A model generated the notes under the pieces. It was given only the letters and a program-made list of their open reading frames with translations, was not told where the DNA came from and did no database searches. A DNA stretch of 45,732 bases, the filler included, from Catajapyx aquilonaris (Eukaryota): the NCBI GenBank assembly GCA_000934665.2. It is 2 parts of 2 records of this genome, joined end to end, with 100 filler letters (N's around TTAATTAATTAA, not from the genome) between each part and the next. Parts side by side here need not be neighbours in the genome. Positions count along the whole stretch, not along the records: positions 22,889 to 45,732 come from JYFJ02005828.1; 1 more part is not named here. One strand, given 5' to 3'. Positions 9,501-38,499 of this stretch are shown here, piece by piece. Positions within the stretch are counted from its first letter, which is position 1, and each line of letters opens with the position of its first letter. A program made the translations under genes and the position numbers.

Positions 9501-12500
9501 ATTCATCATGGCAGTATTCTCCAGGGTTCCCTACATGGTTGCCTCCCCCACCCTAACCAGGGTATTGTCTCCACGTAGTACTTATGGGGCGTCCATATTG
9601 GAGCTAGATTGCATAGGAGGATAGGAAATTGGCAAGCGTCCAATTTTTTTTTTTTCAAGGACATTTTTTCACTGCATGCAGATCCCATCTGATTTAGGTG
9701 GGGGTGGCACTCATGTAGGTGACCCTGGTATTCTCAAGATTGTTGTTCCGGATATTTGAACATATTTTGTAATTAAATCAGCCTAACAGTTGGTCGGCAG
9801 TCATTTAATTTCGAGTTTTTATGGCGATTGCTCTGGAAATTAATTTTGCGAATTCTAGAAGTGTAAAATTGTTCCAAACATAATCACAGTGCACAGCATG
9901 AACGTGTAAGTGTAGCTGTTATTGTTTGTAAAACCATCTTGTCCGTATCTTCAGAGAACATGCAAGTTGAACAGAAGCGAATCTCATTGCCTAGATCTGG
10001 TACCGTAGGGGTTAAAAGGTATGGGCATGGTTCTGTACAGTATACCGTAAAAGTGAGCTGCTCAATTTTTTCCTTTTTCTTTTTCTGATGCTCATAGAGG
10101 GATACAGCCAGAATTCTTAGCTGAAGATGTTGCTCCTGTTTATGTTATTGATTGTAACGCCAGCAGAGTGCCCCTTAAGGCCAAGTTGGCTAATAAAGGG
10201 TATTAAATAAATAAAATAAATAAATAAATAAAAAAGTGAGCTGTTCGGATGTTTTAAATGAACTACTGTCCATACTGTACCCTGCTTTAAATAATTTTAA
10301 ATCAAAATCGTGAACGTCCCACCCATTTTTAGTTCGTCTTCTGGGAAAAGTATGCTATACATATTTTTTTTGCGAGAAATATCGACAAGTTTTCGGACTG
10401 TCATTTATCTTCCGTTAATGTGGCGATGGACGGAAAATCCACACCCGCATAATCGTGAGTACAGTACAGTGCTGGACAAATTAGCCGTCACTGAATGTTT
10501 TTTTTCCGTCTGCGACGGCGCTGCGTTACCTGGCAACAATGGAAGCGCTCTTCATGGGCTGATGTTTGAATTGGCCCGCCGGACAGGGTTGCCAGGTAAC
10601 GCAGCGCCGTCGCCGACGGAAAAAAAACATTCAGTAACGGCTAATTTGTCCACCACTGTATATAATTATGCTATTATCTATACCAAAACTACTCATCCTG
10701 GAAAATACCACCACCATGTCAGCTGCAACAGGTAACTTAAGAAGCCATTATCTCGTAAACTCCAGTATGTTAACCGCAACAGACTTCACTTTTTGAATCA
10801 AGCATATGGATGGTTTCCCTACGCCAAGTTTCATAAGCTTCTCAACTTACAGCAAGTACCGTGCCCTTGTGAGAGCAGGTGCTCACCTTCCCTAACACAT
10901 CATGTTCTGTATATCATACGCACACACACTCTTCACAAAGTCGTTTATATGGCGAAAGTCAATGAGATACTCACCCCACTGGCGCCAGCAGAAGGGGAAG
11001 AAGCGGCCAAGGGGGCCCGCGCGGCGGCGCGGTAGGCCTCTCTATCCTAAAAACACAATTAAAATTCCATTAGGATGAATAAAAGCCATTGGGATTCATC
11101 CCAAAGACCTTAACCCTTAACCTCGTAGGTGGGTGAAACACCTTTAACTACGTAGGTGGAGCCTGAGAGGCTCCAACGGTATATTTAAATTTCTGCTTAT
11201 CAACTAAATTGTTATATTGGACTTTTCACATACAGAAAGTGCAGTTCAGATCATTAGGCTTCCGATAACGTAAAAATCACACGCTGAGTCAGCATATTCC
11301 GACAGGGAAAAATTCTTAATTAAAAGGTTACATCATGCTTGAGCCGCTCAGTCTTCACCTGCATAGGTAGAGCCAGTATGGAGTCCAGGAGGGACCTGTT
11401 CCTCGTTACGAATTTTTTTAAACCAAACAATAGGGACTAAAAAAAATTTTCTTTCCTTTTCATGCTTAGGAAGGTTTGTCTGACAAAGTCACGGAAGGAC
11501 AGGGGAAAATAAAATTCGATGAAAAAGTTACATGCTTTTAAATAGTGCTTGGAGCCTCTCAGGCTCCACCTACGTAGTTAAGGGTTAATACAGGGTGATC
11601 CAACTCTACGGCACCAACAGTTATTGGAAAAATCAGCAAGCTGCTTGTTTATAAGCAGGTCGTTGCTAAGAGATCAATAAGAGATACTTTCTGGAGAATC
11701 GGGAATGGCACCTGCTGATATTAGGTCCAATGCCCATGTAACAATTAATGAGGTAAAAAAGGGTCATCCGTGTGGGAAACTGGCTGTGTTCTGGTGTTCG
11801 CTGGAGGGTTTCACATGAGGTCACTAGCTGCCAAACCAGAGGCCTAATCCGTCGGAACTGGACAGACCCGGGTGTGTCAATAAATAGGCCTTCTGGTCTG
11901 TTCATTGTTGGCCGCAGTTGGCGCAACTGAGACAGGTCAACACTTTGGGTCAACAGGGAGCGTCGTTTAGTTACCAGTAAATAAATAGTTCTTGTAAAGT
12001 CAGGACATGCGTTACTCAGGGGGCCTGTTCGAGGCCCGCCCAAGGGCTTCTTGGGTTCTAACAGTACAGTCTGCATTGGGCATTCTCTCATTAATTGGTA
12101 CATGTATGGGCATTGGACCTAATATCAGCAGGTGCTAAGCCTGGTAACTAAACAACGCTGCCTGTTGACCTGTCTCAGTTGCGCCAACTGCGGCCTACAA
12201 TGCACAGACCAGAAGGCCTATTTATTGACACACCCGGGTCTGTCCAGTTCCGACGGATTAGGCCTGTGGTTTGGCAGCTAGTGACCTCATGTGAAACCCT
12301 CCAGCGAACACCAGAACAGGCCTGTTTCCCCACGAATGACCCTTTTTTCCCCTCATTAACATTGTTACATGGGCATTAGACCTAATATCAGCAGGTGCTA
12401 TTCCCGATTCTCCAGAAAGAGCCAGAAAGCATCTCTTAGCAACGACCTGCTTATAAACAAGCAGCTTGCGCGATTTTTCCAATAACTACTGGTGCCACAG

Positions 12501-12684: not shown

Positions 12685-15600
12685 GATACCACGTGATAGG
12701 CCTCCTTGGGCTTCTTAGGGGATAATCTTTTAAATACCTGTCTTTAATCATTGCCTGCACTATGATGGATTTTGATTGTGGGAGGAAATAAGAGAACCCA
12801 GAGAAAACCCACACGAACATGGAGAGAACCCATCGAAACTCTATCCACATAAGTATCCTCTGTCCGACCCGGGGATCGAACTCGGGACCTCAGAGGTGGA
12901 AGGCTGCAGGGATAACAACTCCGCCACCATGTCGCCCAATGGGAAGATATTATCATGCATACTTATGACTTTAGACTTGCAATAGAAACTGTCAGTAGAA
13001 TTGAAGATATGGTCGTAAACATATATTCCTTTCCCTTTTCCTCTCACCCCAGGAATCAATCCAGGGCAGACTGGCAATGATGTCGCAAAGTTTCAAATTA
13101 TAACTCATCTGCATCACCAGACCATCAGTCATCAAACTTAACCTCCACTCCAGGGTAATGTTGCACACAGAAGATGTCAACGAATCTAGACCTGAGAGCC
13201 TTTGGTACCGACATGTTCACATGTGTGGCTCTTACACAAAGCCACAGGGGGTCCTCCCTCTCCCCTGAGGAATCATCTGACTCATCCTCAGGGAGGACCT
13301 CCTGTGGCGCAGGCTCCTCTCTCTCAAGACTCCTCTGGCTTTAAAGAAGAAAAACCAGCCTTTAGCCATATAAAATAATTCAGGAAAATGTGCCTTGTGC
13401 GTCTGGGGGTGGGGTGACCTATGCCCAGTATTGGCTGGATTCAGTTGGGTTGATACCAACGAAATTGGGCCATTTTTGGAAATGACACCATCTAAAGACT
13501 ATTTAATGTTACTGTTTTTTCATGAAACAATGCATAGCTTTGAAACTAGAAATGTAGACACAGAGGGATGCATTGTACGAGCCAAGATGCAATAACTTTT
13601 AGGAACTAACTACATCCTATGATGCTAGTATTAGGTGAACTGGAAGGTTCCATGCAAATCATGAACTTCATTCTCATTTACTTAATTGTCATACAACCAC
13701 CAATTAATATTGTCTTCAAAAGTAGCACACTTTTAATGGTAAGGGGGGGGGGGGGGGNGGGGAAGCATCCCTCAATCCAATATTTCCATTGCTTCACTTT
13801 TCTTACTTGCCAGTCACACTACTAACATTTACCAGACTAAAAATTATGCAAAGCACATCATCTTCCCCTCCACCAATTCAGATAAACATGAAGCCACAAG
13901 GACGAAGACCAATGAGTTCCCCACAATACTTGGCTTTCTTTTCCAACCTTTCCACACCTGCTGTACTGATTTTTGGACAGTGTAACCACGTGACCTCTGC
14001 ATAATTACTGGCTCCTCAAGATCACCTTGTAGACCTCACATTTTACAATGACAATTCTCTTTCAAAGACTATATCAAGGTTCTCCAACTAGTGTGGAAGA
14101 AGTACTTACTTCCGGCCGCCACCCCCTCAGCCTCTTCTTCCCCTTCTTACTGGGGGGCTGCAGCTGTTCTCCAGTATCCTGAAATTATACAGACAGGATG
14201 AAGATACCGCCATGGTGCCATGTTGGATTATGTCCATCTTGATTGCTTGATTATCATACACAGACATAGGCTCATGAATCTTTTACAAAGCAGTTTTATT
14301 TGTTGGCCGGCAGTCATTTCATTTTCAATCACCCTGTATAGCTGTTGTTATTTGTAAAATATCTTGTCTTCAGAGTATGTGCAGAAAATCTAAGTGCTTT
14401 TGACCTAGCTGGTAGCGAATGGGTTAAAATTTTTCAGATAATAGTTGATGATGGCCAATTTTTCAGTAGCATATACAGGGTGATCCAACTCTGTGGCACC
14501 AGTGGTTATTTGAAAAATCGCGCAAGCTGCTTGTTTATAAGCAGGTCGTTGCTAAGAGATGCTTTCTGGCTCTTTCTGGAGAATCGGGAATAGCACCTGC
14601 TGATATTAGGTCTAATGCCCATGTAACAATATTAATGAGGGAGAAAAGGGTCATCCGTGGGAAACAGGCCTGTTCTGGTGTTCGCTGGAGGGTTTCACAT
14701 GAGGTCACTAGCTGCCAAACCAGAGGGCTAATCCGTCGGAACTGGACAGACCCGGGTGTGTCAATAAATAGGCCTTCTGGTCTGTTCATTGTTGGCCGCA
14801 GTTGGCGCAACTGAGACAGGTCAACATATAGGCAGCGTTGTTTAGTTACCAGTCTTAGCACCTGCTGATATTAGGTCCAATCCCCATACATGTACCAATT
14901 AATGAGAGAATGCCCAATGCAGACTGTACTGTTAGAACCCTAGAAGCCCTTGGGCGGCCCTCAAACAGGCCCCCTGAGTAAGGCATGTCCTGGTCCTGAC
15001 TCTACCAGAACTATTTATTTACTGGTAATTGCTGGTAACTAAACAACGCTGCCTCTGTTGACCTGTCTCAGTTGCGCCAACTGCGGCCAACAATGAACAG
15101 ACCAGAAGGCCTATTTATTGACACACCCGGGTCTGTCCAGTTCCGACGGATTAGGCCTCTGGTTTGGCAGCTAGTGACCTCATGTGAAACCCTCCAGCGA
15201 ACACCAGAACAGCCTGTTTCCCACGGATGATCCTTTTTTCCCTCATTAATATTGTTACATGGGCATTGGACCTAATATCAGCAGGTGCTATTCCCGATTC
15301 TCCAGAAAGTAACTCTTATTGATCTCTTAGCAACGACCTGCTTATAAACAAGCAGCTTGTTGATTTTTCCAATAACTGTTGGTGCCACAGAGTTGGATCA
15401 CCCTGTATATTGTTCACAGAAAGTATTATTTAGTAAAATGATTCCCATTACCATATGTTCGGTTAGTGAGCAATCTTAGGAATGCATCCTACACTTTTTA
15501 TGTCAAGAATTACAAATTTAGTTTCCCCCCGGGCACTAACTGCACACTTTGCAACAGCAGCGAAGAATGGTCCCTGCACCACTTGATTTATGATTGTCAT

Positions 15601-22888: not shown

Positions 22889-23868
22889 GGGGGGGAGAAA
22901 TGTAACATATCAACAAAATCAAAACATTAACACAGAGCTGCAACTCCTCCGAGTCCAAACATAGCAGAGGTGCTTCTCTTGTTTTTTGTAGTGCAATGTG
23001 GCAGGGTCTCTTGATACATACAGATAGGTCTTGTTTTACAACTTTTCATTTTACAATGTTTTTTGCTGGAACCTAACCCTGGACAAGGCCTATCTGTAGG
23101 CAAGAAAAAGCTGAGTTTCACTTTTAAATCCATTGTTACTAGGAACAACTCCATTAAAAATTATTGTCACAGAAATACCAATTCTTTGATACCTATACTT
23201 CCCCCTCCAATATATCTGTATAATACATAAAATCAACTACAGTACTTAAATTAAAAAATCATATCAGCAACTGGATGGCACACTATTGCAACAAGAATAT
23301 TACAAAGTATTCCGATATCATCTCCAGTATCCCACAACATACACAATAGAGCTGCAGTTCTTTCCTGTGAAGTGTACTTCACATTAAGAGCCACTAATAT
23401 GCAACATAATAAATCGGAAATAACTGTGGAATGTGTAATTACCGAGTTTTTATTCTTAACACATGCACTACACTCATTCCCAAAAGCCTCAAATAAAGAA
23501 TGACATCCACATCCAAGCCTAGTTCCCACCCCATCATGAAGTTGGTAGGAGACGGATGAGCACAATGAAAAGATGGAACATAAACGCAAGAATGTGACTC
23601 AATGGTACATGGAGTTTAGCAAGCATGCGTCTTAAAACCATGTACCTAGAAATACACTGCTGGTAAAGTGGCATCAAAATAAGACAGTACCATAAGGGCT
23701 GGAGTGTATGAAATTGTTTGGCATAAATTTCTCTAACCTTGTGGTAACAGGTTTCATTAACATATGCCAGAAAATGCAAATTACAAATTTAATTACTACT
23801 CCATGACCCTTCAATACTGCTCTGTAAGTACTGTTCATAAGACACAGTGTGTTTCTGACACCACAATA

Positions 23869-24162
23869 CAGGGTGATCAAACTTTTTTGTCGTTTTAGTT
23901 ATTGACAAATTCGGCCTAAGCTGCTTATATTGTAGCGCGTTACTTGGCAACTCCGTCCGATGGGCCAATTCAAACACGAGCATGTGGAGAGTGCTTCCAT
24001 TGTTGCCACTGTTTGCCAACAGTGGCAACAATGGAAGCACTCTCCATATGCTGATGTTTGAATTGGCCCGTCGGACGGAGTTGCCAGGTAACGCGCTACA
24101 ATATAAGCAGCTTAGGCCGAATTTGTCAATAACTAAAACGACAAAAAAGTTTGATCACCCTG
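23869..24162. mobile_element. Near-perfect palindromic mariner-type MITE
   Basis: TA|CAGGGTGATCAAACTTTTTTGTC ... GACAAAAAAGTTTGATCACCCTG|TA; a few mismatches only. Confidence 0.92.
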
Positions 24163-25192: not shown

Positions 25193-28100
25193 TTAGACCT
25201 GAGAATCAAGGTTCATGACAGACATTTGCTTGGCAACGCTGTTCATGTTCTCAGTCAACAATGCAGAGTAGAGTTGACCAAAGGTGCATTTTCTGGGCTT
25301 TCTCCCTTTCCACTCAAGAAGCATCTGGTATGCACACTCCCTGAATCCAGTGGATTTGTGAGCATGCTCTATGTTTTGCAGGATGCTCTCTTCCATTCCC
25401 AATGTTCTGCCAAGAGCACGCCAGTTGATGTTGTTCATATGGGAAGACAGGTTCCACAGGTGGGTGTCGTTTAATTTGCGGTTGTCATTTCTAAAATAGG
25501 ACAGGTGACAGATCAGTCTTAGTTAAGACAAATTAATTTGAATATTAAGGGGATCGGATACCCATGCCATTTTCCGACTGGCAGGCCAAGATTGGCAGTA
25601 ACACGGGTGCAGGGTTCTCTTTGCACCGCCGATGCGGGCGTCTCGCTGGAGGTACGAACATGAAATTTTCACAGAATGGCGAGAAAGGTCTATTATTTGA
25701 GCCTCACCGAAGGTTAGATCCATTCTGATAATAATTATGAGATCTACAAGGGGAGTTTTTGAAAAATTGCTCATGGCAGCTTGGCTCCGGATTCGAATTT
25801 GGGAGATATCTTGACAAGATTCAATGGCAAACATATTCCTCTCTCACTCCTCCACTGCATGATTTATTTGGGCTATTACTTTTTGCCCAGCTATTAAAAC
25901 CGTGACACCACCTCACCTCGTAATATCGGCAGGGAACTTTCGAACGTAGAACAGTTGGTTCCCTGTCCAGGTTGCCAGGGAACCTGTTAGGGCTAAATAA
26001 ATTTAAAAGCACCTGGGCGACAGGGAGTTCGCAAGTTCCCCGCCAATTTTACGAGGTGAGGTGGTGTCACGGTTTTAATAGCTGGGCAAAAACCAATAGC
26101 CCAAAATAAGAGAGGAATACTTTTGTAGTCGAATCTTGTCGCGATATCTCCCAAATTCGAATCCAGAGCCAAGCTGCCGTGAGCTGTTTTTCAAAAACTC
26201 CTACCCTTGTAGATTGCGTAATTATTATCCGAATGGATCTAAACTTCGGTGGAAGCTCATATGGACCTTCCTCGCCTTTTTGTGAAAATTTCAGATCTGT
26301 ACCTCAGGCAAGACGCCCGCATTGGTGGTGCACAAAGAATGCTGCGCCAGTGACTCTGACAAACTTCGCCTGCGAGTCAGAAAAATCGTGTAGGTATCCG
26401 GCCTTGTTTCATGAACACACGAAGAAAATCTCTTGTACATTGTGAATTCAAGTACATAACTGGATGTTCCCTAATTTGTGCTCACATGACTGGCCAGGTC
26501 ATGTACAAGAGCAAGAAAATAGATCATAGTAGATGAATTACCTTAAGGTTAATTAAGACAATTACAGCCAATTTTGTATCATGTGGAAGTGGAACTCCAT
26601 GGGAATGGTATCAAAGTCTATTCTGTGATAGCTTCCCATAATGCAATAATTCTCAAGCTTCACTAAAAAAGAGGACTCAGGCCCAGTTTCACCACTGCCT
26701 TAAACCGCCAATTTGTCAATAAAAATAACAGTTGGAAAAAATAACTAACACAATGCTTAAGGCACATGTGAAATTGGGCCCTACCAAGTTAAGATGCATT
26801 TACATGTGAGCAATTTTATAGAGCGATGTCATCGGCGAGAGGTGCATCGCTAAGTAACCTGAGTAACCAGTATTGTTTGAGCTTTGAGGATAAAAACCGA
26901 TTGTTACTTTCACTTCAAACATGTATACCAAAAATGACTGTATTCAAAGTGCTTATTCGTTCATCAGTAAATTCTGGGCCCCAAATTCACCCCCTGATTG
27001 AGTTTAATGCAAATATGTTACATGTACTTGCCCTGATCTGAAAATATTGGGACACCCCCAAAAAATGGAGTGGTGGGGTTATACACAGGATGTGATAAAA
27101 AGTTTCCATTAAGATTATCTGGACTTCAGAATGGATAATTATGAATAGTAACAATTGAGCTAGGAGGATACCAAATTTGAAGTTCATTTGACAGTTAACA
27201 ACTGAAATAAATACGATTATACCTTGGACAGTGAATTTCTGTGGGGTCTGGTAAAAATTGCTGCCACTATGTTAATTTCTTACTTAGCGGGATGTAAATG
27301 TTGATAATGAACCTGAGGGGCCGCACAAACCCAAAAACAGTTATGACATTAATTACAAAAAATCTAGCACAAAATTAAAAAATATTTATCGCAAGTGGAT
27401 TTTTCCAGAAATTGATACACTTGGCTGTACCACATTTAACGGTGTTATTTATTAATAAATTAAAATGTGATAGTATTGTTTATCTAGAACTCAGTCCAAT
27501 GTGCTATGATAAAAAATTTCATTGCAATTAAAGTAAAATGGCTTTAAATATTCCTTAATTCAAAAATGCACAAAAAATGGCATATCTGCAAGCCATGATA
27601 AATATTTTTTAATTTTGTGCTAGATTTTTTGTAATTAATGTCATAACTGTTTTTGGGTTTGTGCGGCCCCTCAGGTTCATTATCAACATTTACATCCCGC
27701 TAAGTAAGAAATTAACATAGTGGCAGCAATTTTTACCAGACCCCACAGAAATTCACTGTCCAAGGTATAATCGTATTTATTTCAGTTGTTAACTGTCAAA
27801 TGAACTTCAAATTTGGTATCCACCTAGCTCAATTGTTACTATTCATAATTATCCATTCTGAAGTCCAGATAATCTTAATGGAAACTTTTTATCACATCCT
27901 GTGTATAACCCCGCCACTCCATTTTTTGGGGGTGTCCCAATATTTTCAGATCAGAGCAAGTAACTTGGTTCAGTCCTCCTTGTGAGTTGGACTTTTCATG
28001 AAATATCACAGGATGTGCTTTTGACACTCACTTGTACTTCTCAGCTGATTGTACTGACAGGACCTCATGTGCATCTTCATCATCATTTGCATCCCCGACA

Positions 28101-30400
28101 TCTGATTCCTCAGAGCTGGATGAAACAGTCTCAGACACATCTGAGAATTGACGCCTTGGCTTCTTAGCTGATGATCCGCCGCTGCCCTTCTTGGATGGGT
28201 TAGGTCTCTTGCGACTTGACTGCTGTGAGGTTGAATCAGAATCATCATCTTCATTTCGTCCTCGACGCAACCACGATGGCCAAGGGGTTGGGAAGACTGG
28301 TGGTGAATTATTTACAGATTTCTTCCGTGAACCCCTTGATTCTTTGGATTCCTTCCCCGATGAGTTGTGAGATGATCTGGAATCCTGAGAAGAACCACCC
28401 AGCCCACTGTTGTTCCTCAATTGTATCTCACGACTTACAGCATACAAAGCTTGCACAAATTCATCAGGTGTGCCACCTCTCTGCTGGTAAAGTGTCAGTA
28501 TGGCCATGAATGGATCAGCAGCATGCTGCAACTTGTGCTTGATTTCACTGCGTGTGAAACCTATGTGGCGTGCAAATTTTCGCCAATTGTCCTCAGTAAT
28601 TAATGTACAGGCAAGCTCCTTAATGGGCACAGCTAACCATTCTTCTGAGACAACTGGAGGTGCTGTCAGCCCTTCTGCACCACTCTTGAAAAGATTGAAT
28701 TCAAAGAGTGGCTCATTACGACCAGCATTCAAAACTCTTTCAACAACAACCTTTCCAAATGTGCCTTTTTCAATCACATTATCCCCAATGTATCGACAAG
28801 CATATTGTTTCTCAAAGTCACGACCTCTGAAGTCCAATTCCTCCTTTGACAAACTGATTTCTTCTCCAACATCAACATCTGCTTCAAAAATCTTCGATTT
28901 CAGCTGTACAGAGATACGACCAGGTCGCACAAGCTTTGGTTTAGTGCTACTTCCAACCCTGTGCTTGTAGTTTGATTCAGGTAATTGCCGATCACTCCTA
29001 TAGCAAATAACCTCCAATGAAAATGTCTTTGCTGATTGGTTCTCTTCCATAAAAGCTTGACACATCATTGAAAATGAAATGTAGGGGTAAAAATAGGACA
29101 TTCCCATTTTCGCTTCATACAATGATGCTGTTAACACATCCCAGAGAACTTTAAAGAAGCTGAAATGCTGCACTGGAAAAGTAACAGTTGTCAGACCACA
29201 AGGAAATGATGAAAGAGTAAATGGTACTCCTTCAAGCTTCTCCCACACATCACCAGTTTCACTTTGCCATACACTCAAGCCTAGGGGAAGGCCAGTGGGA
29301 AGAGTGTCTGGGCTGTTAAAAAACCGGGTGAGAATTCCATTGTAATCTGGAACTGGAAGTTGAACTGTAACTGGAGTGTGAAAGTCACGGAACTGGTATC
29401 CATGTGGTGCCACCATCACTACAGGGGATGCTAATGCCTTTAGCCCAAGAGAGGCTCCAGGGCTAATATTCGTATCCCCCATCCACACGCGCACTGTCAC
29501 TTCCAAATCTTCCACAAGCACTCCTCTTGGGAAAGTCACCTCCACACCAGGAGCAGCAGCTACTCGCACGCAACCACCAACACGACAACGAACCCGTTTC
29601 GTAGCCTGGAGGCATGCCCATGGAGCTAATTGGGACCAAGTTGCATCTTCTGCGACTGCTGTAAACAGGCTGAAGTGACGTGTGGCTATCACCAAGAAGT
29701 GGCCCAATCGAAAGAAGTGTTCGGGTAAAAGCCTCTCCCATTTTGGCTGGCTGCCCTCTGGTGTGTCACTGCATAAACAGGTGAGTTGACCCATAAGATC
29801 AGCAGATTGCAAAGGCAAAAATATGTAAGCTGGTTGATTTTGATAAAACTCAACCCCATGTGGTTCAAGAGAGACAACAGGTGCCACATGCATCACTTCT
29901 GCTCCTGGGCCTCCTCTGGGCACGTACATAGGGTCACGCAAAATCCGTAAATGAAATTCAGGTCCACCAGAGAATGCCTGTGGTATCAGTACGAATACAT
30001 CACCATTTGTTAACAGCTGAGTAGGTCCAACACACTGAGTCAGTTCTGACATATGACGCCTCTCAGCATCAGATTCCCAGCCATCATCACTAGCAGCTGC
30101 ATCATCACAGTCTGAATCCCAACCAACTCGTGACAAGCAGCAATCAGAGTCCAGGTCACTCAAGTCTGCAGATGCTGTTCCATACTCAGAAGTGCTGAGC
30201 TGGTCACACTGAAGCTTCTTGTCATCATTAACAGCATTCTTTTGACTACGTGTGTAATATGGCATGGATGGCAGCTGCTGTGACCCATGGGATTTCTTCT
30301 GTTTTGGGAGAGGTGGAGCAGAGGAGAAGTTGAGCTGGGCCAGAAGACTACGTCTGGCATTTGGACGGAGCCTCACGAGACAAGACTCAGCGGATTTCAT
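25193..30400 (-). CDS. PIDD1-like ZU5-ZU5-UPA-death domain protein, no LRRs, with a second C-terminal death domain (2 coding exons, 888 aa from ATG 30400)
   Basis: Exons 30400-28032 (donor AA|GTGAGT, phase 2) and 25490-25193 (TTTTAG|A) join in frame (..EKYK-NDNRKLNDTHLWNLSSHMNNINWRALG..). ZU5-like blocks (VAPVVSLEPHGVEF; GVEVTFPRGVL..ASPVVMVAPHG), HFS motifs (TRHFSLF, VQHFSFF), DD1 (NWRKFARHIGF), DD2 (NWRALGRTLGM..AYQMLLEWK). Real start could be the second Met (MPYYTRSQK, 30265). Orthology to PIDD1 vs DTHD1 not established. Confidence 0.85.
25549..26403. mobile_element. Diverged palindromic MITE, possibly Kolobok-type
   Basis: TTAA|GGGGATCGGATAC left end, degenerate right end, about 400-bp inverted arms; lies in the intron of the PIDD-like gene. 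Confidence 0.7.
26680..26780. mobile_element. Small PIF/Harbinger-like MITE
   Basis: GGCCCAGTTTCAC ... GTGAAATTGGGCC; TSD not clean. Confidence 0.5.
27027..27960. mobile_element. Young palindromic TA-flanked MITE
   Basis: TA|CTTGCCCTGATCTGAAAATATTGGGACACCCC ... TCAGATCAGAGCAAG|TA; about 365-bp near-identical arms. Confidence 0.92.
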
Positions 30401-32292
30401 GATTGGTCACAATTTCATCAGGGAAAGAACTAATTGCATAGGACGAGAGTCTCATCACTGGTCTTCATCCAGGTGGAAGCCATATTGGAATCTTGAGATC
30501 CATTTCATGCACCTGTAAGAAAAACAATTCAGTATAGTTACCACTTACAATGGGAATCACCACTAGTGTCTGTATATTCCTGGTAAAATAGCAGAGACAC
30601 ACTCTCTGCTATTCTACTGAAGTACCTCATATATGTATCTGTCCAAGGAAATAATATTTATGCTGCTGGGGCATGTCAATAACAGGGCTAGTTGGAAGTG
30701 TTTTGGAGATGTTTTATAATTATTATGAATTAGTAACTTTCAGAGTTACCTTTCACGGCTATCAATAAGAGCAAGTGTTAACATGACGTGGAATGGAAAC
30801 GTAACTCAATTAACTAGTTGCCAAAACTATCATACATTACCCTGCATTTATGCAAGCACCCTAAGTTACCCCATTTGGGCTTCCACAGGGTTGGCTTGAA
30901 GTTAAGGCTCTGGAAGTGAGCTGACTTAAGAGGCTTACAGGATCCACATGAGAGAAACTCGGACCACTTGCTCAGAAACACTCTACACTGAGTCATTAAA
31001 AATAACCATTTGATAGATCCCAATCAATAAACAAGCCGAGATCTGTGGACATAATGATGAAGATTTGTCTTTTGTGCTCCACGATGAAACATATGATGTA
31101 ACTCTTAGTCAGTTGATCAATAGGCTAAACATTTCAAGACTACAGGTTGAACTCAGTTTTCCAGAAAGAAAGAGAGAGAGAGAAGAAAAAAAAAACCACC
31201 CGAATCTTTACAACGGTGATCTGCATGCAGTTTTTGTACATCTGTCCAATTGCACTATAATTTTTCATGTGTCCTGACTAGAGACTTAACTGGACTATTA
31301 TACAAGGATATTTCACACTACCTTACAATATGCAATACATTGTGGGAAAAGAGTAACACTGAACAAAACAGTTACATAGGCTGTCACGTCCATCATACCA
31401 CACAACACTGACATTTTACATGATCAAGGTACCCTAGGGTTGTAATACACATCATTGGTTATAATGGCAATTTCACGCTATTTTAGTGAGTCGGCAGGTG
31501 CTCAAAAAGCAATAGCTATGCACATTAAAAATGACACTGTGCAAAATTGAGGCAACATGTCAGCAATGTGTCCAGATGACCAGATGTGATGGGAGAGCAA
31601 TAGAGTGTGCATCATGAGAGGCATGCGTATGCTATTGAACCACAGAGAAAACCGGAGTCTCAGCTGGGGTGGACCGGTACCAACCTGCCTACTGGGTCAG
31701 CTGTTTCGGCCCTCTTCATGTGGGCCAAGGTCAGAACTCCAAATAATTGATTCCAACTGCTTATCCTTCTCCAAAGTGTCAGTCGGACGTGCCTGATCCG
31801 CCGCGATGCCGGTCGCCGGTAGGCCAGTGGTCTTCTTCACTCTCTCATCGACCGGCAGCAAGGGACAGAAAATTGACCTCCTCGTTAATCACTCGGTTGG
31901 GGGAAAGCTGCAGGTTCAGGATTATTTGCACATCACAGGACCAGGAAGGCATGGAGCTGGCAGTCCCTGTCGGCCAGTGAGCGTCCCTTTTCTGGCTACT
32001 CCCTCCTCGTCCTCCTCCCCCACCACCTCCACTCTGAGTCACCATTCATGGGTCCACCTGTCCTTGAAGCCGCCCCAAAATTCCTGACCTGCTCTGCAGC
32101 CTCCAAAACCGCGTCAACAGCCAACGGGACGATGCTATTTAATCACGATTAAAACGAAGCCACTTGTCCCGGTTGTTTTTGTTCGATTTTTTGTTTGTTG
32201 CTTTGTTTCGAAGCCATGCAATAGTTGGACCACACGGCCACGAGGGCGGCGCCACCATCTCACGCGCCATCTTTCATGCAGTGTGGCTGTAC

Positions 32293-32585: not shown

Positions 32586-35500
32586 TCAGACACTAGCTTT
32601 CCTTGCTCTCTCCACCTTTTCCCTCTCGGCCTTCATTATTTTTTTGGCAGTCTTTTGCTCCATTTCCTCATAATGCTCTGCAAACATTAACTTCAGTGCT
32701 GGGTACATCAGCGGGATGAGCTTCAGGTCACTCAGGCGAACCTGAAAACAACATTTCTAGTCGTAACTAATAAAAAAGGTTAATTGAAATGTGCACAAAT
32801 GGGAAGAGTGTAACAAGGTCCACATAGGGTGGCTTATTGCTACTGTCATGGATGGTCATGTGATGTGAGATAAATGAAGGTATTATTGTCTTCAACTAAT
32901 TCAGAGTCAGAGTCCAGTCAAACTATTCTATAAATGTCTCCAAAATCTTGCAAAGTCAATCTGACATGCTCTAATTAATTTTTTATTATTATTATAGGGT
33001 GGCAAATTAGCCTTTGAATGTCGTGCTCCTTGTTTCCGGGGGGGGGGNNNNNNNGAGAGAATGTCAAAAAGTGGCCTAAAATCGGTCACGTGGTATTTGC
33101 ACGACCCCTTACTGGGTTCTCTTCCTTCAGCAACCCACATTTGCCTACTGAAATTATTAAAGCAAAAAGTACAGTACTTACAATCATGTTGTCAAATGCA
33201 ATTCCAACAGCCTGTCCAAAGTTGTGGTTGATGAGTGGCAGTTTTGCATATCTCTGGCTAAAATGTGTAAGTATTGTAAACCCAGCCTGCATATTCCTTC
33301 CTTGTTCAATTGCTTGAGAAGTAGTTGAATGTGTCTTGAGCTTTGCCTCCTCTTCTAAACCATCTTCCATTGTTGCTTCATGCACCAATAGGTCACAACC
33401 CTTTCCAATCTCTACCAATCCTTCACATGGCATAGTGTCTCCAGAATATACTAAACTCCAGCCCTCTCTGTGTGTCAGGCAAATTCCAAATGCATTTGGA
33501 CAGTGCTCAACTGGAGTAGTGCAAATATCTGACATTCCCATTTTGTCAAGAACATCTGGAGGAGTCCCAGCATCATTTGGTATTATACGGATATCCGCCA
33601 TAATATGTTCAAACACACGGTGGTACCGCCCCAACCAAGATGTTATTTGTTTGGGTGCCAACAATAGTAATGTAGTACTGGGACAAGTCTTACGTCGTGC
33701 TTTTAACAGACTAATCAGCCCAATGTGATGGTCTGCATGTAGATGAGAAACATATATGGCCTGTAGGCAATGAAGTACATTTCTTGATTCAGCTTGTCCA
33801 TAGAAGCGGACTAGTTGGCCGTAGGTGCCTTCTCCACAGTCCATGAGTATGTACTTGTCTGGCCTGAGAAGATAGATGGTTACAAGTTTTTGATGACATT
33901 ACTCCAAATATACACTACAACTGCAGTCAGCAGTAAAATTTAGCCATTACTGTATCAATATTGCATTATGGTACAGACTTGTACACTCGAATGACTTTAG
34001 CTGATTCGGCTCTTCCAATAATCCAAACTGAATTTAACCCTGGAACCGTGCCGTGCCTACGAGTATTACGGCAACCGTGCCGTGGGGTCTTTTCGGACCC
34101 CACCATATTTTAATTTTTTAAAATTATTATACAGGGTGTCTATTGTAACTCTGCAAAGACTTTCAGGGATAATAGAGGGGACCAAGACAAGTATTTTTGA
34201 CATAGGAACCCGTGTCCGGAAACGTCATCTAGAGGGGGTTCATAGACAAGGAACGGGTGAGCTCGGACGCGTCACGCGGGAGGCGCTAGGGGGGCGGCCT
34301 GTTTTGTTGATAGATGGCGCTCGGATAGTAACCAACGATGCAATGTGTCATAACCTGACAACAGCAGAGCCATCTAGCAACTAAAGTATGCCTCCTAGGA
34401 GACGCGCGGATAGTCAACAGCGGTTCTGTTGTTGCCAGGTTATGGCGTATCGCGTTGTTGTTTACTTACAACGACGCGATACGCCATAACCTGGCAACAA
34501 CTGGGCGCCATCTATCAACAAAACAGTCCGCTCTCTTAGCGCCTCTCGCCTGACGCGTCTGAGCGCACCCGTTCCTTGTCTATGAACCCCCTCTAGATGA
34601 CGTTTCCGGACACGGGTTCCTATGTCAAAAATACTTGTCTTGGTCCCCTCTATTATCCCTGAAAGTCTTTGCAGAGTTACAATAGACACCCTGTATAATA
34701 CTTTTCAATGTATTGACTATACAAGGTGGTCGGTAAATGGCGGACAAGCTTCAGGTAGCAAGATTCCTTGTGAAAAATCAGTATATGGAAGTGAAGGTCA
34801 TATTGCTCTACGAGGCCTGGTTAGGGCTCACGAGGCCACCAAAGTTTGGGCCAAATCATGACGTCACATCCGCCCGCTAAATTCAAACACAACCGTATCG
34901 CTACCGTACGCGGCGTGTTGCTAGGCGTTGCCATGTTGACATCTACCACATGTTCACCAAACAATGGAACCGTACAAACTCGCCGGGACGTTGCCAGGCA
35001 TTGCCATGCCGTCGTCGCCGAGTTCCTGGCAACGTCCCGGCGAGTTTATACGGTTCCATTGTTTGGTGAACATGTGGTAGATGTTAACATGGCAACGCCT
35101 AGCAACACGCCGCGTACAGTAGCGATACGGTAGTGTTTGAATTTCGCGGGCGGATGTGACGTCATGATTTGGCCCAAACTTTGGAGGCCTCGTGAGCCGT
35201 AACCAGGCCTCGTAGAGCAATATGACCTTCACTTCCATATACTGATTTTTCACAAGGAATCTCGCTACCTGAAGCTTGTCCGCCATTTACCGACAACCCT
35301 GTATACAATCATTCTTTGAACAGTGCCTAAAATGATAGCTAATTCAAAATAAACCTGCACTTCCTGTTATATACTATAAAAAATGGCAAAAGTTCATTGT
35401 AATTATAATTATCATTTTAATGCATTTTTTCCCTTGGGGTCCGAAAAGACCCCACGGCACGGTTCCAGGGTTAAACCTGAACTGAATTGTAATCAAAATT

Positions 35501-37972
35501 CATGAGGCTGCCTGAATAGCATGAACCCAGAAGATTACCATTTACCCCTAGCATGCTCACACAGAGAATGTACAATTCTCAGTTTATTGTGTGCACTTTC
35601 AGATAATAACAAGTTCACCTCTGCACTTACTCTGTATGTAGTAGCAATCCAGATGTGTTCCTGGTCTTGTTTGGTATACATGATCCTGTGCCTAGGAACA
35701 ACAACTTTGGAAATTCCCTCTCTGGATCCCCTTCCATAGTTGAAATACTTTTCTTCAGCTTTTCTAATGTATCTAGAAACCCCTCTGTGGCCATTGTCTC
35801 ATCAATATATTCCTGTGGGTCCAGCTTTGGTATAAGTGAATCATCAACACCTTTCCTAGGACGCAGGTGACACGACAATAATGTGGCACCCCGGACCAGT
35901 GGGATCCCAATGTCCTTCTTGTCCTGAGGAGAATCTTCTGGTTCTTTTAGCAATGGGAATATGTGTGGATGAAGTAGGTTAAGTTTATGCTGAATTCGAT
36001 GGACAGCAACTGATCCAAATCCAACATTATCTTCATTGATGGTCAGGTGAATGGTTGAAGGAGGGAAGAGTGACATCCAACGATGATACCTATCTGTTTG
36101 CATCACATGAGAGGGGGTGAAGTGAACTACAGCATAAGCAGCTTCATCCTCAGAGGTACAGTTCTGGTGACGAGAGAGTTCTACGCTGCCAATAAGGGAG
36201 TCGAGAAATGCCTCTGATGGACACTCCACCACTACAAGAGAGAAAAGCACAAAATTACAATCAAGTTCATTTAATTATATCAATAGCTTATTCTCATATT
36301 GATGGGACGTGACACGCCTTGCCTCTACATTCAGTGGTATAAGTTCCAAGTGGAAATAAAATGCATACCATATTATATAAATTCCATAGATGGATCAACT
36401 TATGCCATGCCTTATCCTTTTAGTTTCACACTGGGTTCCCTCACCTAAGAAGATCGGTCCGGGATCATCTGCCATTCTTACTTCATCTGCTCGGACTACA
36501 CTTCCATTTGGAAGAGTAACATCCTCCCCTGCTTTGAGTTTTCCGAGTAATGGACCAGCAGGCACCCCCTTTTCCACACATTTTTCAAGTACCAATGCAC
36601 CAGGTTTTTTGTGTGGTCTGCATATGTAGGCCACACTCACATCACGCTCCTCTCTATTAACTTCCTGCTGTCCATTGCTAGCAGAATTATTCTCCTGGAA
36701 GAAACGTGCCCGTCTACCAGTGCGCTCATGGGCATAATAGTCTGTGGTATCCTCTTCCTCTTGCGTTTGATTATTAAGGTCAACCTTCCTTTCACCCCAG
36801 AGTAGGACATATTCAACACGCATTACATTGTCTTCAAAGTGGACATGGGATGTGTGGGGGCGTTGTTGAATTTGAAGATCCTTCAGCACCACAAATCGGC
36901 GAGTAGCTTGGAACAGCTCTTCCTGGATTAAAGAACATCAAAGTTCATGTTTGTTTGTGTGAGCTTGCACTCATAGTGATAATACTAAGGAGGTTGGAGG
37001 ATTGTATTTAAAAAAACATGGCAATTGACGTTTTAAATATCAGGTTATAAAAACAACATTTTATAGACAAACTGTGATCCTGTTATAAGAAGGTATCATC
37101 AGTCCAAAAAGAATTGTCCCTCGCGTCGAGCGGGCAGCCACGCGTCAGGATGAAAGGAACCAGTTAACTGGTTGCTTTCAATTCTTTTTGAACCGTTGAT
37201 ACATAAAAGCCTTATTGGTGTTTCACAAATTCGACATTAAGAAGAGTCAATTTCATGTCATGTTGCTTCAACCATAAAAGAATACTGATGTTGCAATGGC
37301 AACGATGACTCTCAGCTGTCATTAATATAACTATCTGTGACAGGCTTGTGATGTCAGTGCCTCACTCTAGTTGCAAACACTTTATAAGTTTAAAAAACCT
37401 TCCCCGTGAAGGATGCATTACAATTAGCCCAACTACATTGGAGTGAGTTCCATTCTTCTACATGCTTCCCATTAATTTTGAATTTCTTTAATAAGAAAAA
37501 AACCCACCAGTCCAGGAGGTCCATGCAAGGTAAGCTGGGGCACTCCAATGTCTTGCACGGTTAAGGCTAGTCCTGGCAGACCTCCTAAATTCTCCCAGCA
37601 GTTGTATGTGACAAAAACATGCTCCAGTTTGGCCAGCTTCATCTTGTGCTCATGGGCCAGCCGCTGCGTCCCCTCCCCACAATTAAAAAGGTAGCGATTT
37701 TGGTCAGTGAAGATGTACAGGGAGCGGGGGGAAGCACCACCACCTCCACCTCCTCCCAACACCTGGAGGGTGATTGTGCCTGGAGCATATCGCATCCCTC
37801 GTTCCTTCAGCTGCTGTCGGGTATGACGAAGGGCAGGGACATGCTTGGGCTCCCGTGGCATTTGAAGAAGAAGTTCACTCAGATCTGCAAACTTCTGGGT
37901 TGAGGCACCTCTATGGAGAGTAAGGACCAATCGGGCATGGGTTTTCACCAAACCTGAGAGTTTAATCAAACC
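32586..37972 (-). CDS. ELAC2: tRNase Z long form (ELAC2 / RNaseZ); first coding exon unresolved
   Basis: Exons 37972-37508, 36922-36445, 36231-35631, 33863-33182, 32741-32586, all GT-AG and phase-compatible (794 codons incl. stop). Motifs: YLFNCGEGTQRLAHEHK, flexible arm GVPAGPLLGKLKAGEDV, FLGTGSCIPNKTRN, DCGEGTYGQL, SHLHADHHIG (HxHxDH), YSGDT, HEAT, HST, THFSQRY. Confidence 0.97.
34132..34693. mobile_element. Palindromic mariner-type MITE (nested)
   Basis: TA|CAGGGTGTCTATTGTAACTC ... GAGTTACAATAGACACCCTG|TA. Confidence 0.92.
34722..35301. mobile_element. Palindromic mariner-type MITE (nested)
   Basis: TA|CAAGGTGGTCGGTAAATGGCGG ... CCGCCATTTACCGACAACCCTG|TA; palindromic to the centre. Confidence 0.92.
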
Positions 37973-38499
37973 CTGCGGACAAAAAAATATTGATAATACA
38001 AAACACAATAAAAAACTGGTGTTTGTGGTTGGTTTTGCTCCCACATAATGGACTACCAATGGTGTGAAGTGTTTGAGGGTGGGTCGAAGTAAAAAGCGTG
38101 TATTATCTGTATTGATTGGCCAGATGTCCAGCACGTTTACCTAAGTTACTGGTACTAGTGCCTTTGTAGCAACAAGCTTTATTCATACAAGGAATCTCCA
38201 GTGCACTAGCCCCTTGTATCCCTGGAGGGCATGAAGTGATAAAAACCCATCCTGGCATGCTTATGCAAGCCAGAAATGTCACCTGCACCTCCAGGTTTGG
38301 CTTGTGCAACTTCCCTCTTAGCTATGCAAATATCCTCACACTTCACTTGAATGTTGCTAACATGCACATGTGGCTGAACGGCATCCACGGAGGCTACACT
38401 TGCGATTAATACACACCCTAAGAAAGAATGAAGCTCCTACAGCAATACGAAAATGCATTACCATCAATTGGCCCAACCGGCCATGCCATTTGCTGCAAT

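Follow-up and report, generated by a model that had tools for sequence, protein, structure and literature searches.

Does the genome of Catajapyx aquilonaris encode a self-cleaving death-domain scaffold of the PIDD1 type? This question is raised by a locus at positions 25193..30400 of a 45,732-nucleotide stretch of that genome, referred to here as the window (assembly GCA_000934665.2; two parts joined end to end with 100 filler letters between them, positions 22,889 to 45,732 coming from JYFJ02005828.1). PIDD1 chooses between survival signalling and caspase-2 activation upon DNA damage or in the presence of extra centrosomes, and its cleavage at S446 and S588 gives the fragments PIDD-C and PIDD-CC. 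The sequence-only reading of the locus had pointed out a PIDD1-like protein lacking leucine-rich repeats (LRRs) and carrying two His-Phe-Ser (HFS) motifs of the kind at which PIDD1 cuts itself. As judged from its sequence, the locus is a real gene, which codes for an LRR-less variant, with two death domains (DDs), of the PIDD-like putative self-processing scaffolds. The explanation that we favour, and consider probable, is that of an intact and conserved pancrustacean gene for a cytoplasmic scaffold of 888 amino acids (aa), related both to PIDD1 and to DTHD1, an LRR-less vertebrate protein without assigned function, and not assigned here as an orthologue of either.

In the literature that we searched, PIDD counts as unstudied beyond mammals and perhaps as specific to vertebrates. 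In the accessible portion of Krasovec et al. (2024, PMC11463336), PIDD is described as uninvestigated in non-mammals and none was detected in lophotrochozoans, while two bivalve papers, in the portions available, mention PIDD homologues solely by way of genome annotation (PMC7836458, PMC8917759). The searched literature on non-vertebrate PIDD or DTHD1, in which subscription journals were mostly outside coverage, yielded no work on a PIDD-like protein of an arthropod.

All parts of the gene lie on the minus strand, in two exons (30400-28032 and 25490-25193). The open reading frame (ORF) extends over 28028-30406, with an ATG at 30400-30398 from which 790 residues would be read before splicing. 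The exon 1 coding sequence (28032..30400, aa 1-790, the final codon running over into exon 2 by one base) was delimited from this ORF and its translation, and nine relatives cover 30304-28145 of the block in tblastn. Exon 2 (25193..25490; 98 codons and a stop at 25195-25193) was located by tblastn with the C-termini of relatives, which fall on 25495-25199 with 62-71% identity for arthropods. Between the two stands a phase 2 GT-AG intron (25491..28031), with a GTGAGT donor at 28031-28026 and an acceptor ...TATTTTAG ending at 25491: the exon 1 frame closes as ...TAC AA/GTGAGT and ...CCTATTTTAG/A precedes the downstream frame. Joining 28032 to 25490 preserves the phase and gives an unbroken alignment to Limulus, Nymphon and Darwinula proteins over the junction. 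Meaningful tblastn matches of the nine relatives within the window are confined to these two blocks. A pseudogene or retrocopy was also considered, and is ruled out by the open frame, by conservation throughout and by the conserved exon 2 behind a canonical intron.

The predicted protein is composed, in this order, of a disordered N-terminus, two ZU5 domains, a UPA domain, a first death domain (DD1, encoded in exon 1), a Ser/Lys-rich linker and a second death domain (DD2, encoded in exon 2). AlphaFold2, run on an alignment of 21 sequences, gives a model whose core (aa 125-575) mostly has predicted local distance difference test scores (pLDDT) above 80, and the disordered tails (aa 1-108 and 665-790) pull the mean down. 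ZU5-like domain 1 (about aa 125-252; 29645..30028) is modelled as a beta-strand domain, matches 4d8o in Foldseek and ends in the first candidate autoproteolysis site, H242-F243-S244 (29669..29677). ZU5 domain 2 (about aa 262-420; 29141..29617) is recognised by Pfam (ZU5, aa 275-349, E 6e-8), aligns with the ankyrin ZU5C and ends in the second candidate site, H412-F413-S414 (29159..29167). Each motif is flanked by predicted strands at the end of its ZU5 (E235-240/E245-251 and E404-410/E415-420, respectively). The UPA-like domain (about aa 421-575; 28676..29140; pLDDT 83-96), which matches the ZU5-UPA of ankyrin and UNC5b in Foldseek, is the best conserved part of the family, with dense invariant columns at aa 433-576. 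Behind the first motif, an insert of about 9 residues (aa 253-261; 29618..29644) is found in the window protein alone; it is a gap in 20/20 other rows of the alignment and is modelled as disordered (pLDDT <50).

The top Foldseek match of the model is the ZU5-ZU5-UPA-DD tandem of ankyrin-B (4d8o, E 8.5e-19), followed by other ankyrin ZU5 structures and, lower, by the cytoplasmic domain of UNC5b (3g5b, E 4.9e-10); the rat NLRP1 FIIND matches weakly (7crw, E 9.3e-4). Since the template modelling (TM) scores of the long matches are only 0.14-0.26, individual domain folds are supported and their mutual arrangement is not. Pfam, model and Foldseek place ZU5, UPA and DD folds in the order of the ZU5-UPA-DD supramodule. 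Ankyrin repeats, a transmembrane segment and an Ig/TSP ectodomain were all absent from the protein as judged by Pfam, which also returned no FIIND, UPA-FIIND or CARD match.

The N-terminal region (aa 1-120; 30041..30400; pLDDT <50 for aa 1-108) stands where LRRs would. It is rich in S, L, P, K and R over residues 1-60 and in D and S over residues 60-120, and carries a T-S-E-Y-G-T-A-S motif (aa 70-77; 30170..30193) corresponding to the consensus TSDYG at alignment columns of about 383-390. Pfam found no LRR family in the protein at E up to 10, and tblastn with four LRR-bearing relatives found no LRR coding in the window's 15 kb upstream, including the 2.7-kb intergenic space. Most structural claims of the sequence-only reading are therefore borne out. 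Both HFS motifs stand exactly where it had put them (29677-29669 and 29167-29159); Pfam, the AlphaFold2 model and the match to 4d8o agree with its ZU5-ZU5-UPA-DD layout in which HFS ends each ZU5; and composition, modelled disorder and the absence of LRRs from Pfam and tblastn results agree with the basic, then acidic, LRR-less N-terminus that it had described. It had foreseen a single death domain: the one behind the UPA is indeed there in exon 1, and a second, in exon 2, has to be added to it behind an in-phase GTGAGT...AG intron.

Are the two HFS motifs a chance feature? HFS occurs exactly twice in the 790-aa frame. The first motif is invariant in 21/21 aligned family members and the second is HFS in 19/21, a conservation that tells against chance. 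For a wider count, all retrieved sequences were aligned to a core hidden Markov model, those with a score of at least 290 bits being taken as the family. Site 2 is HFS in 70, HFT in 12, HFC in 3 and NFC in 1 of the 86 family sequences covering it, that is, H-F-[S/T/C] in 85/86. Its third position is thus nearly confined to Ser, Thr and Cys, the possible nucleophiles of an acyl shift, which is the pattern expected of a self-cleaving nucleophile; we take this restriction as the strongest in-silico sign of a conserved self-cleavage. Site 1 is more variable (HFS in 51/80 sequences covering it), and the window protein retains both. In the accessible part of a review (PMC9162469), the His at -2 and the Ser nucleophile are described as acting in PIDD1 and Nup98 autoprocessing.

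In a pancrustacean sub-clade without site 1, HFS has given way to YLS, FLS, SLG, CHT, DFG and others, with H-F-[S/T] retained at site 2; the members that lost site 1 include P0021, P0023-P0026, P0028, P0031, P0036, P0043, P0049, P0050, P0057, P0058 and P0076. This suggests that the second cut alone would be indispensable. The outgroup protein P0223 (830 aa), composed of ankyrin repeats, ZU5 and Death, also has motifs of this kind, HFS and HFT, where the two sites align. With ankyrin repeats in the place of the LRRs of PIDD1, it may represent a further architecture of the same putative self-cleaving module.

DD1 (about aa 588-663; 28412..28639) is recognised by Pfam (Death, aa 603-662, E 4.2e-7) and modelled with five helices (aa 590-663), and gives weak matches only against the PDB (p75NTR, E 0.06). 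DD2 (25223..25462) is recognised by Pfam as well (Death, E 3.6e-11 in the frame 25193-25522). Exon 2 is modelled as a six-helix death domain (AlphaFold2 pLDDT 86.5), and its best PDB sequence match by phmmer is the RIPK1 DD (E 5.4e-7, 26% identity), with TNFR1 next at 5e-3; a profile search also gives the RIPK1 DD (E 7.6e-10). By fold, the RIPK1 DD filament 9v9e_A comes first as well (TM 0.78/0.84, root-mean-square deviation 1.6 A), FADD and RAIDD being next. The family profile did not match the PIDD DD among PDB sequences at E up to 1. A specific likeness to the PIDD DD is seen in neither domain, and DD2 is nearest to the RIPK1 DD. This resemblance points to candidate partners of the FADD/TRADD/TNFR/IMD type more than to RAIDD. 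It concerns the death domain, by sequence and by fold; the window protein has neither a kinase domain nor a RHIM. The DD of arthropod IMD has likewise been likened to that of RIPK1.

The linker between the two death domains (aa 664-790; 28032..28411; pLDDT <50) is disordered and rich in Ser, Lys and Asp, with a conserved RKR...KKPRRQFSDVSET..SSSEES stretch and the conserved columns 'RKRS' and 'RR..S..SET..SS'. Just ahead of DD2 (28032-28200), a basic patch is followed by FSD(V/I)SET and an acidic Ser cluster, a succession kept from arthropods to annelids. The conserved stretch may be a nuclear-targeting or phospho-regulatory element. Reading across the donor (AA/GTGAGT, 28026-28033) gives AAG TGA, so that a retained intron would bring an immediate stop and a 790-aa product without DD2, a possible isoform switch. 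The predicted proteins of amphioxus and Saccoglossus likewise stop short of DD2.

How widely is this architecture distributed? A search of 5.8 billion proteins, in which only the 8000 candidates sharing most words were scored, found 64 relatives (best E 5.8e-163, about 50% identity), with identities of 36-49% across arthropods, spiralians and deuterostomes. The matches name 19 arthropod species, among which cockroach, crickets, locust, stick insects, mayflies, a collembolan and an ostracod, and also horseshoe crab, mites, a pseudoscorpion and a sea spider. None of these 19 species, drawn from the 8000 scored candidates, belongs to Holometabola or Hemiptera; the absence from both is suggestive. 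Searching 1.84 billion representatives with a profile (1266 matches at E up to 1e-3) added LRR-bearing members from a sea urchin and a crinoid, as well as LRR-ZU5-ZU5-UPA-DD proteins with both HFS motifs from the sponge Oscarella. Cluster look-ups covering 20 proteins put names to 4 clusters (Oscarella twice, Diadema and Orchesella).

Arthropod members differ from the others at the N-terminus. The 14 aligned from arthropods are all without LRRs and have two DDs wherever the sequence is complete, whereas the 7 aligned from other phyla (Owenia, two nemerteans, three amphioxus and Saccoglossus) all carry N-terminal LRRs and so display the full LRR-ZU5-ZU5-UPA-DD layout, which is that of PIDD1. 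In these LRR-bearing relatives the TS[DE]YG motif sits between the LRRs and ZU5-1; its conservation at aa 70-74 here fits a deletion of the LRRs rather than a different gene. Comparative sequence evidence thus makes the LRR-less N-terminus an arthropod-wide trait and not a quirk of a single gene, shared as it is by 14/14 arthropod members scanned. As part of the explanation that we favour, the ancestral form of the family probably bore N-terminal LRRs that were lost in arthropods. The window protein does nest in an arthropod family with the same architecture, for which no sign of a characterisation was found; the names given to its members are 'uncharacterized protein' or 'Death domain-containing protein'. 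By its sequences, this appears to be a conserved and old animal family, so far uncharacterised.

In a tree built quickly by maximum likelihood from 54 rows and 442 columns, with the ankyrin repeat-ZU5-DD protein as outgroup, the invertebrate family is recovered as one clade (support 94), with an internal order that matches the species tree. The arthropod clade has a support of 99 in the Shimodaira-Hasegawa-like approximate likelihood-ratio test, and the window protein falls inside a pancrustacean clade (support 99) and outside the clade of the four sampled pterygote insects (support 96). This does not sustain the earlier description of the source as an apparent insect genome. The tree leaves the order of the window protein relative to an ostracod and a collembolan group unsettled.

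Two further sets of ORFs were included for comparison. Group B (700-916 aa, 170-270 bits) has LRRs, two ZU5 and both HFS motifs, retaining HFS in 36/38 at site 1 and in 39/43 at site 2. Group C (430-600 aa, 100-165 bits) has two ZU5, a UPA and partly degenerate motifs, with HFS in 17/28 and 17/29, respectively. The nearest Atlas entry for the group B member P0112 is a chordate 'p53-induced death domain-containing protein 1' cluster (0.97, 201/256 features); the PIDD1-like label of the group rests on this one look-alike, for which the Atlas gives neither alignment nor E-value. The C-terminal DD of P0112 did not match the human PIDD DD among PDB sequences. BLASTP aligns the window protein (P0001) with P0112 over 406 aa (29% identity, E 9e-33), and the two HFS motifs of each are in register.

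In the tree, groups B and C join in a clade of their own (support 99) that lies outside the invertebrate family. The approximately unbiased (AU) test rejects placing them beside the amphioxus member (p 0.0004, log-likelihood difference 43.1), and it rejects grouping them with the six deuterostome members as a whole (p 0.0002, difference 44.7), with the reservation that both groups are unnamed, possibly vertebrate-only and on long branches, which may bias these tests. Taken at face value, the family would be an ancient PIDD1/DTHD1 paralogue lost by vertebrates; alternatively, the vertebrate genes may have evolved fast and been drawn out of place in the tree. The relationship to PIDD1 proposed from the sequence thus stands in part: homology is supported by the alignment with P0112, whereas orthology draws no support from the tree, the AU tests or the Pfam family Peptidase_S68. 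From these three results the protein is filed as PIDD-like by architecture and probable mechanism, and not as a PIDD1 orthologue.

Several observations weigh against a PIDD-like self-processing scaffold. Cleavage is a prediction from motifs and analogy, and transcript and exon junction are predicted likewise. Peptidase_S68 (PF10461) does not match the window protein at E up to 10, and matches 1/21 family members, with a score of 16.5 bits that falls short of the threshold of 31.9, this being an amphioxus member at site 2 (E 0.011). Neither DD1 nor DD2 matched the PIDD DD among PDB sequences at E up to 10, and by fold the PIDD DD (2of5_H) comes only 9th for DD2. The model has a mean pLDDT of 65.6 and a predicted TM score of 0.35, which makes the mutual arrangement of its domains unreliable. 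Finally, site 1 is lost in 29/80 family sequences, including the pancrustacean sub-clade with the collembolan Orchesella, so that two-step processing is not universal in the family.

These points have to be set against what other explanations can offer. Were the gene a true arthropod orthologue of PIDD1 that builds a PIDDosome, the line taken by the sequence-only reading, its UPA-DD fragment would act through a CRADD/RAIDD-like adaptor on a caspase-2 orthologue of the Dronc type, and a longer fragment would feed NF-kB-type (IMD) signalling. Two ZU5 each ending in HFS, a UPA and a C-terminal DD are common to PIDD1 and the window protein; the domain order of PIDD1 is present in non-arthropod family members, both HFS align with the PIDD1-like chordate-type group, and an amphioxus member gives the sub-threshold Peptidase_S68 match at site 2. 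Vertebrate family members are absent from the word-index search results, which fits a fast-evolving vertebrate PIDD1 counterpart; nor did those results contain any vertebrate protein carrying a name. As far as the accessible portions of the sources go, Dronc and Ced-3 are caspase-2 orthologues (Krasovec et al., PMC10959488) and CRADD occurs among molluscs, annelids and brachiopods (Krasovec et al., PMC11463336). Nevertheless, the AU tests reject nesting, possibly biased by long branches, Peptidase_S68 is unmatched and the DDs are not PIDD-DD-like, while the group used for comparison owes its PIDD1 identity to a single Atlas look-alike whose own DD misses the human one. PIDD1 also differs by its LRRs and single DD from the window protein, which has no LRRs, two DDs and a linker of about 125 residues. 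Vertebrate PIDD1 acts as a scaffold both in the PIDDosome and in the NEMO/RIPK1 complex. We consider it unlikely that the gene is an orthologue that builds a PIDDosome.

An invertebrate counterpart of DTHD1, with a role unrelated to caspase activation, is a very improbable reading. The Atlas look-alikes of the core (aa 120-680) include chordate 'Death domain-containing protein 1' clusters (0.94, 169/256 features, and 0.92) and, from molluscs, a 'death domain-containing protein 1-like' cluster (0.90), although such look-alikes come without alignment or E-value. DTHD1, like the window protein, is LRR-less with a C-terminal DD, the Atlas being the sole source of the relationship, and ZU5-ZU5-UPA ORFs of about 430-600 aa with part-degenerate HFS are related at 100-165 bits. 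As to function, DTHD1 is a protein of motile cilia by its detection there, and proteomics found it in human respiratory cilia, in the accessible part of the report (PMC12310455). However, the presumed DTHD1-like group C, labelled from the Atlas only, stays below the 170-270 bits that the PIDD1-like group reaches against the profile of the family, and with its degenerate HFS joins the clade of that group (support 99) and not the window family. A somewhat less remote idea, still quite improbable, is that of a non-cleaving adaptor of the ankyrin/UNC5 type, in which the supramodule would stay intact, bind cytoskeletal or membrane partners and keep HFS for folding. The best matches among solved proteins, by structure and by sequence, are indeed ankyrin ZU5-ZU5-UPA-DD and UNC5b (4d8o, 3g5b), with the same domain order at about 14-18% identity, and part of the family can do without site 1. 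But the window protein has no ankyrin repeats, transmembrane segment or receptor ectodomain of the Ig/TSP type and does have conserved HFS and a second DD; its nearest relatives outside the solved structures have the LRR-ZU5-ZU5-UPA-DD layout and both HFS; and a variation restricted to Ser, Thr and Cys in 85/86 sequences at site 2 is hard to ascribe to folding alone.

Under the preferred explanation, that of a PIDD-like scaffold related to PIDD1 and DTHD1, the protein would cut itself at H-F/S244 and H-F/S414 via an N-to-O acyl shift, as do PIDD1, Nup98 and the FIIND of NLRP1/CARD8. Both cuts together would split the protein into three: the N-terminal part, a ZU5 part and the UPA-DD1-linker-DD2 part. 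The cut at site 2 would release UPA-DD1-DD2 (aa 414-888) from the inhibitory ZU5 domains, and the freed fragment could then nucleate a death-domain assembly, being the active platform by analogy with PIDD-CC and the FIIND proteins. Its RIPK1-like DD2 would be the likely recruiting surface. The FIIND of NLRP1/CARD8 serves as the working model here: a cut at the ZU5/UPA border frees a UPA and death-fold fragment that oligomerises, the effector fold being a CARD in these proteins and a DD in the window protein. In the FIIND motif, according to the accessible part of the review already cited (PMC9162469), serine replaces histidine.

A broader scenario, which we put forward as doubtful, joins these elements. 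Mammalian PIDD1 is said to recruit RIPK1 as a separate protein. In this scenario a self-cleaving death-domain switch of the PIDD type, its layout and both HFS motifs already present in the sponge Oscarella, would predate bilaterians, and the arthropod protein with its RIPK1-like DD would be a 'Rosetta-stone' fusion of the PIDD1-RIPK1 pair that mammals have as separate proteins. The LRR-less fusion form would survive in chelicerates, crustaceans and early-branching hexapods, and would fill the place of a missing platform upstream of CARD-caspase or IMD/FADD signalling among non-holometabolan arthropods. The form would have been lost toward Drosophila, and for that reason fly genetics would never have found it.

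The surroundings of the gene show several other features. The intron contains a foldback element (27025-27962) with 366-nt arms, 99% complementary, and a spacer of 206 nt, and a second nest of repeats (25570-26384) with four inverted-repeat pairs that are 78-92% complementary. The upstream neighbour on the same strand (33086-38140, minus) is a multi-exon gene for an ELAC2-like long tRNase Z (Pfam Lactamase_B_2, E 9e-16; tRNase Z endonuclease domain, E 3e-16), and the space between the two genes leaves only 2.7 kb for a promoter. A scan of the whole window for p53 response elements (two RRRCWWGYYY half-sites, spaced by 0-13 nt) gave 0 exact and 4 one-mismatch sites, none of the latter between 30400 and 33086 (shuffles averaged 0.15 and 0.5). 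As far as motif content goes, the scan lends no support to p53 inducibility. Elsewhere in the window, long stop-free frames with near-identical peptides occur in pairs, 11666-12118 with 14535-14870 (both minus) and 10301-10735 (plus) with 23789-24154 (minus), which look like copies of interspersed repeats; the frame 11666-12118, the only one of the four scanned, had no Pfam match.

What would such a gene mean for the family? Proteins with the architecture of PIDD1 and both motifs span a sponge, echinoderms, acorn worm, amphioxus, an annelid, nemerteans and the 19 named arthropods, so that this kind of candidate self-cutting switch would be old and widespread in invertebrates. If the protein does cut itself and nucleate a death-domain complex, the ancient parts of the PIDD switch would be ZU5-ZU5-UPA and site 2, with the LRRs and site 1 as optional ones. 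Crickets, cockroaches, mayflies and crustaceans would then offer tractable systems for the candidate switch. Should the protein be self-cleaving and nucleate a complex, arthropod cell-death and immune research would gain an upstream component.

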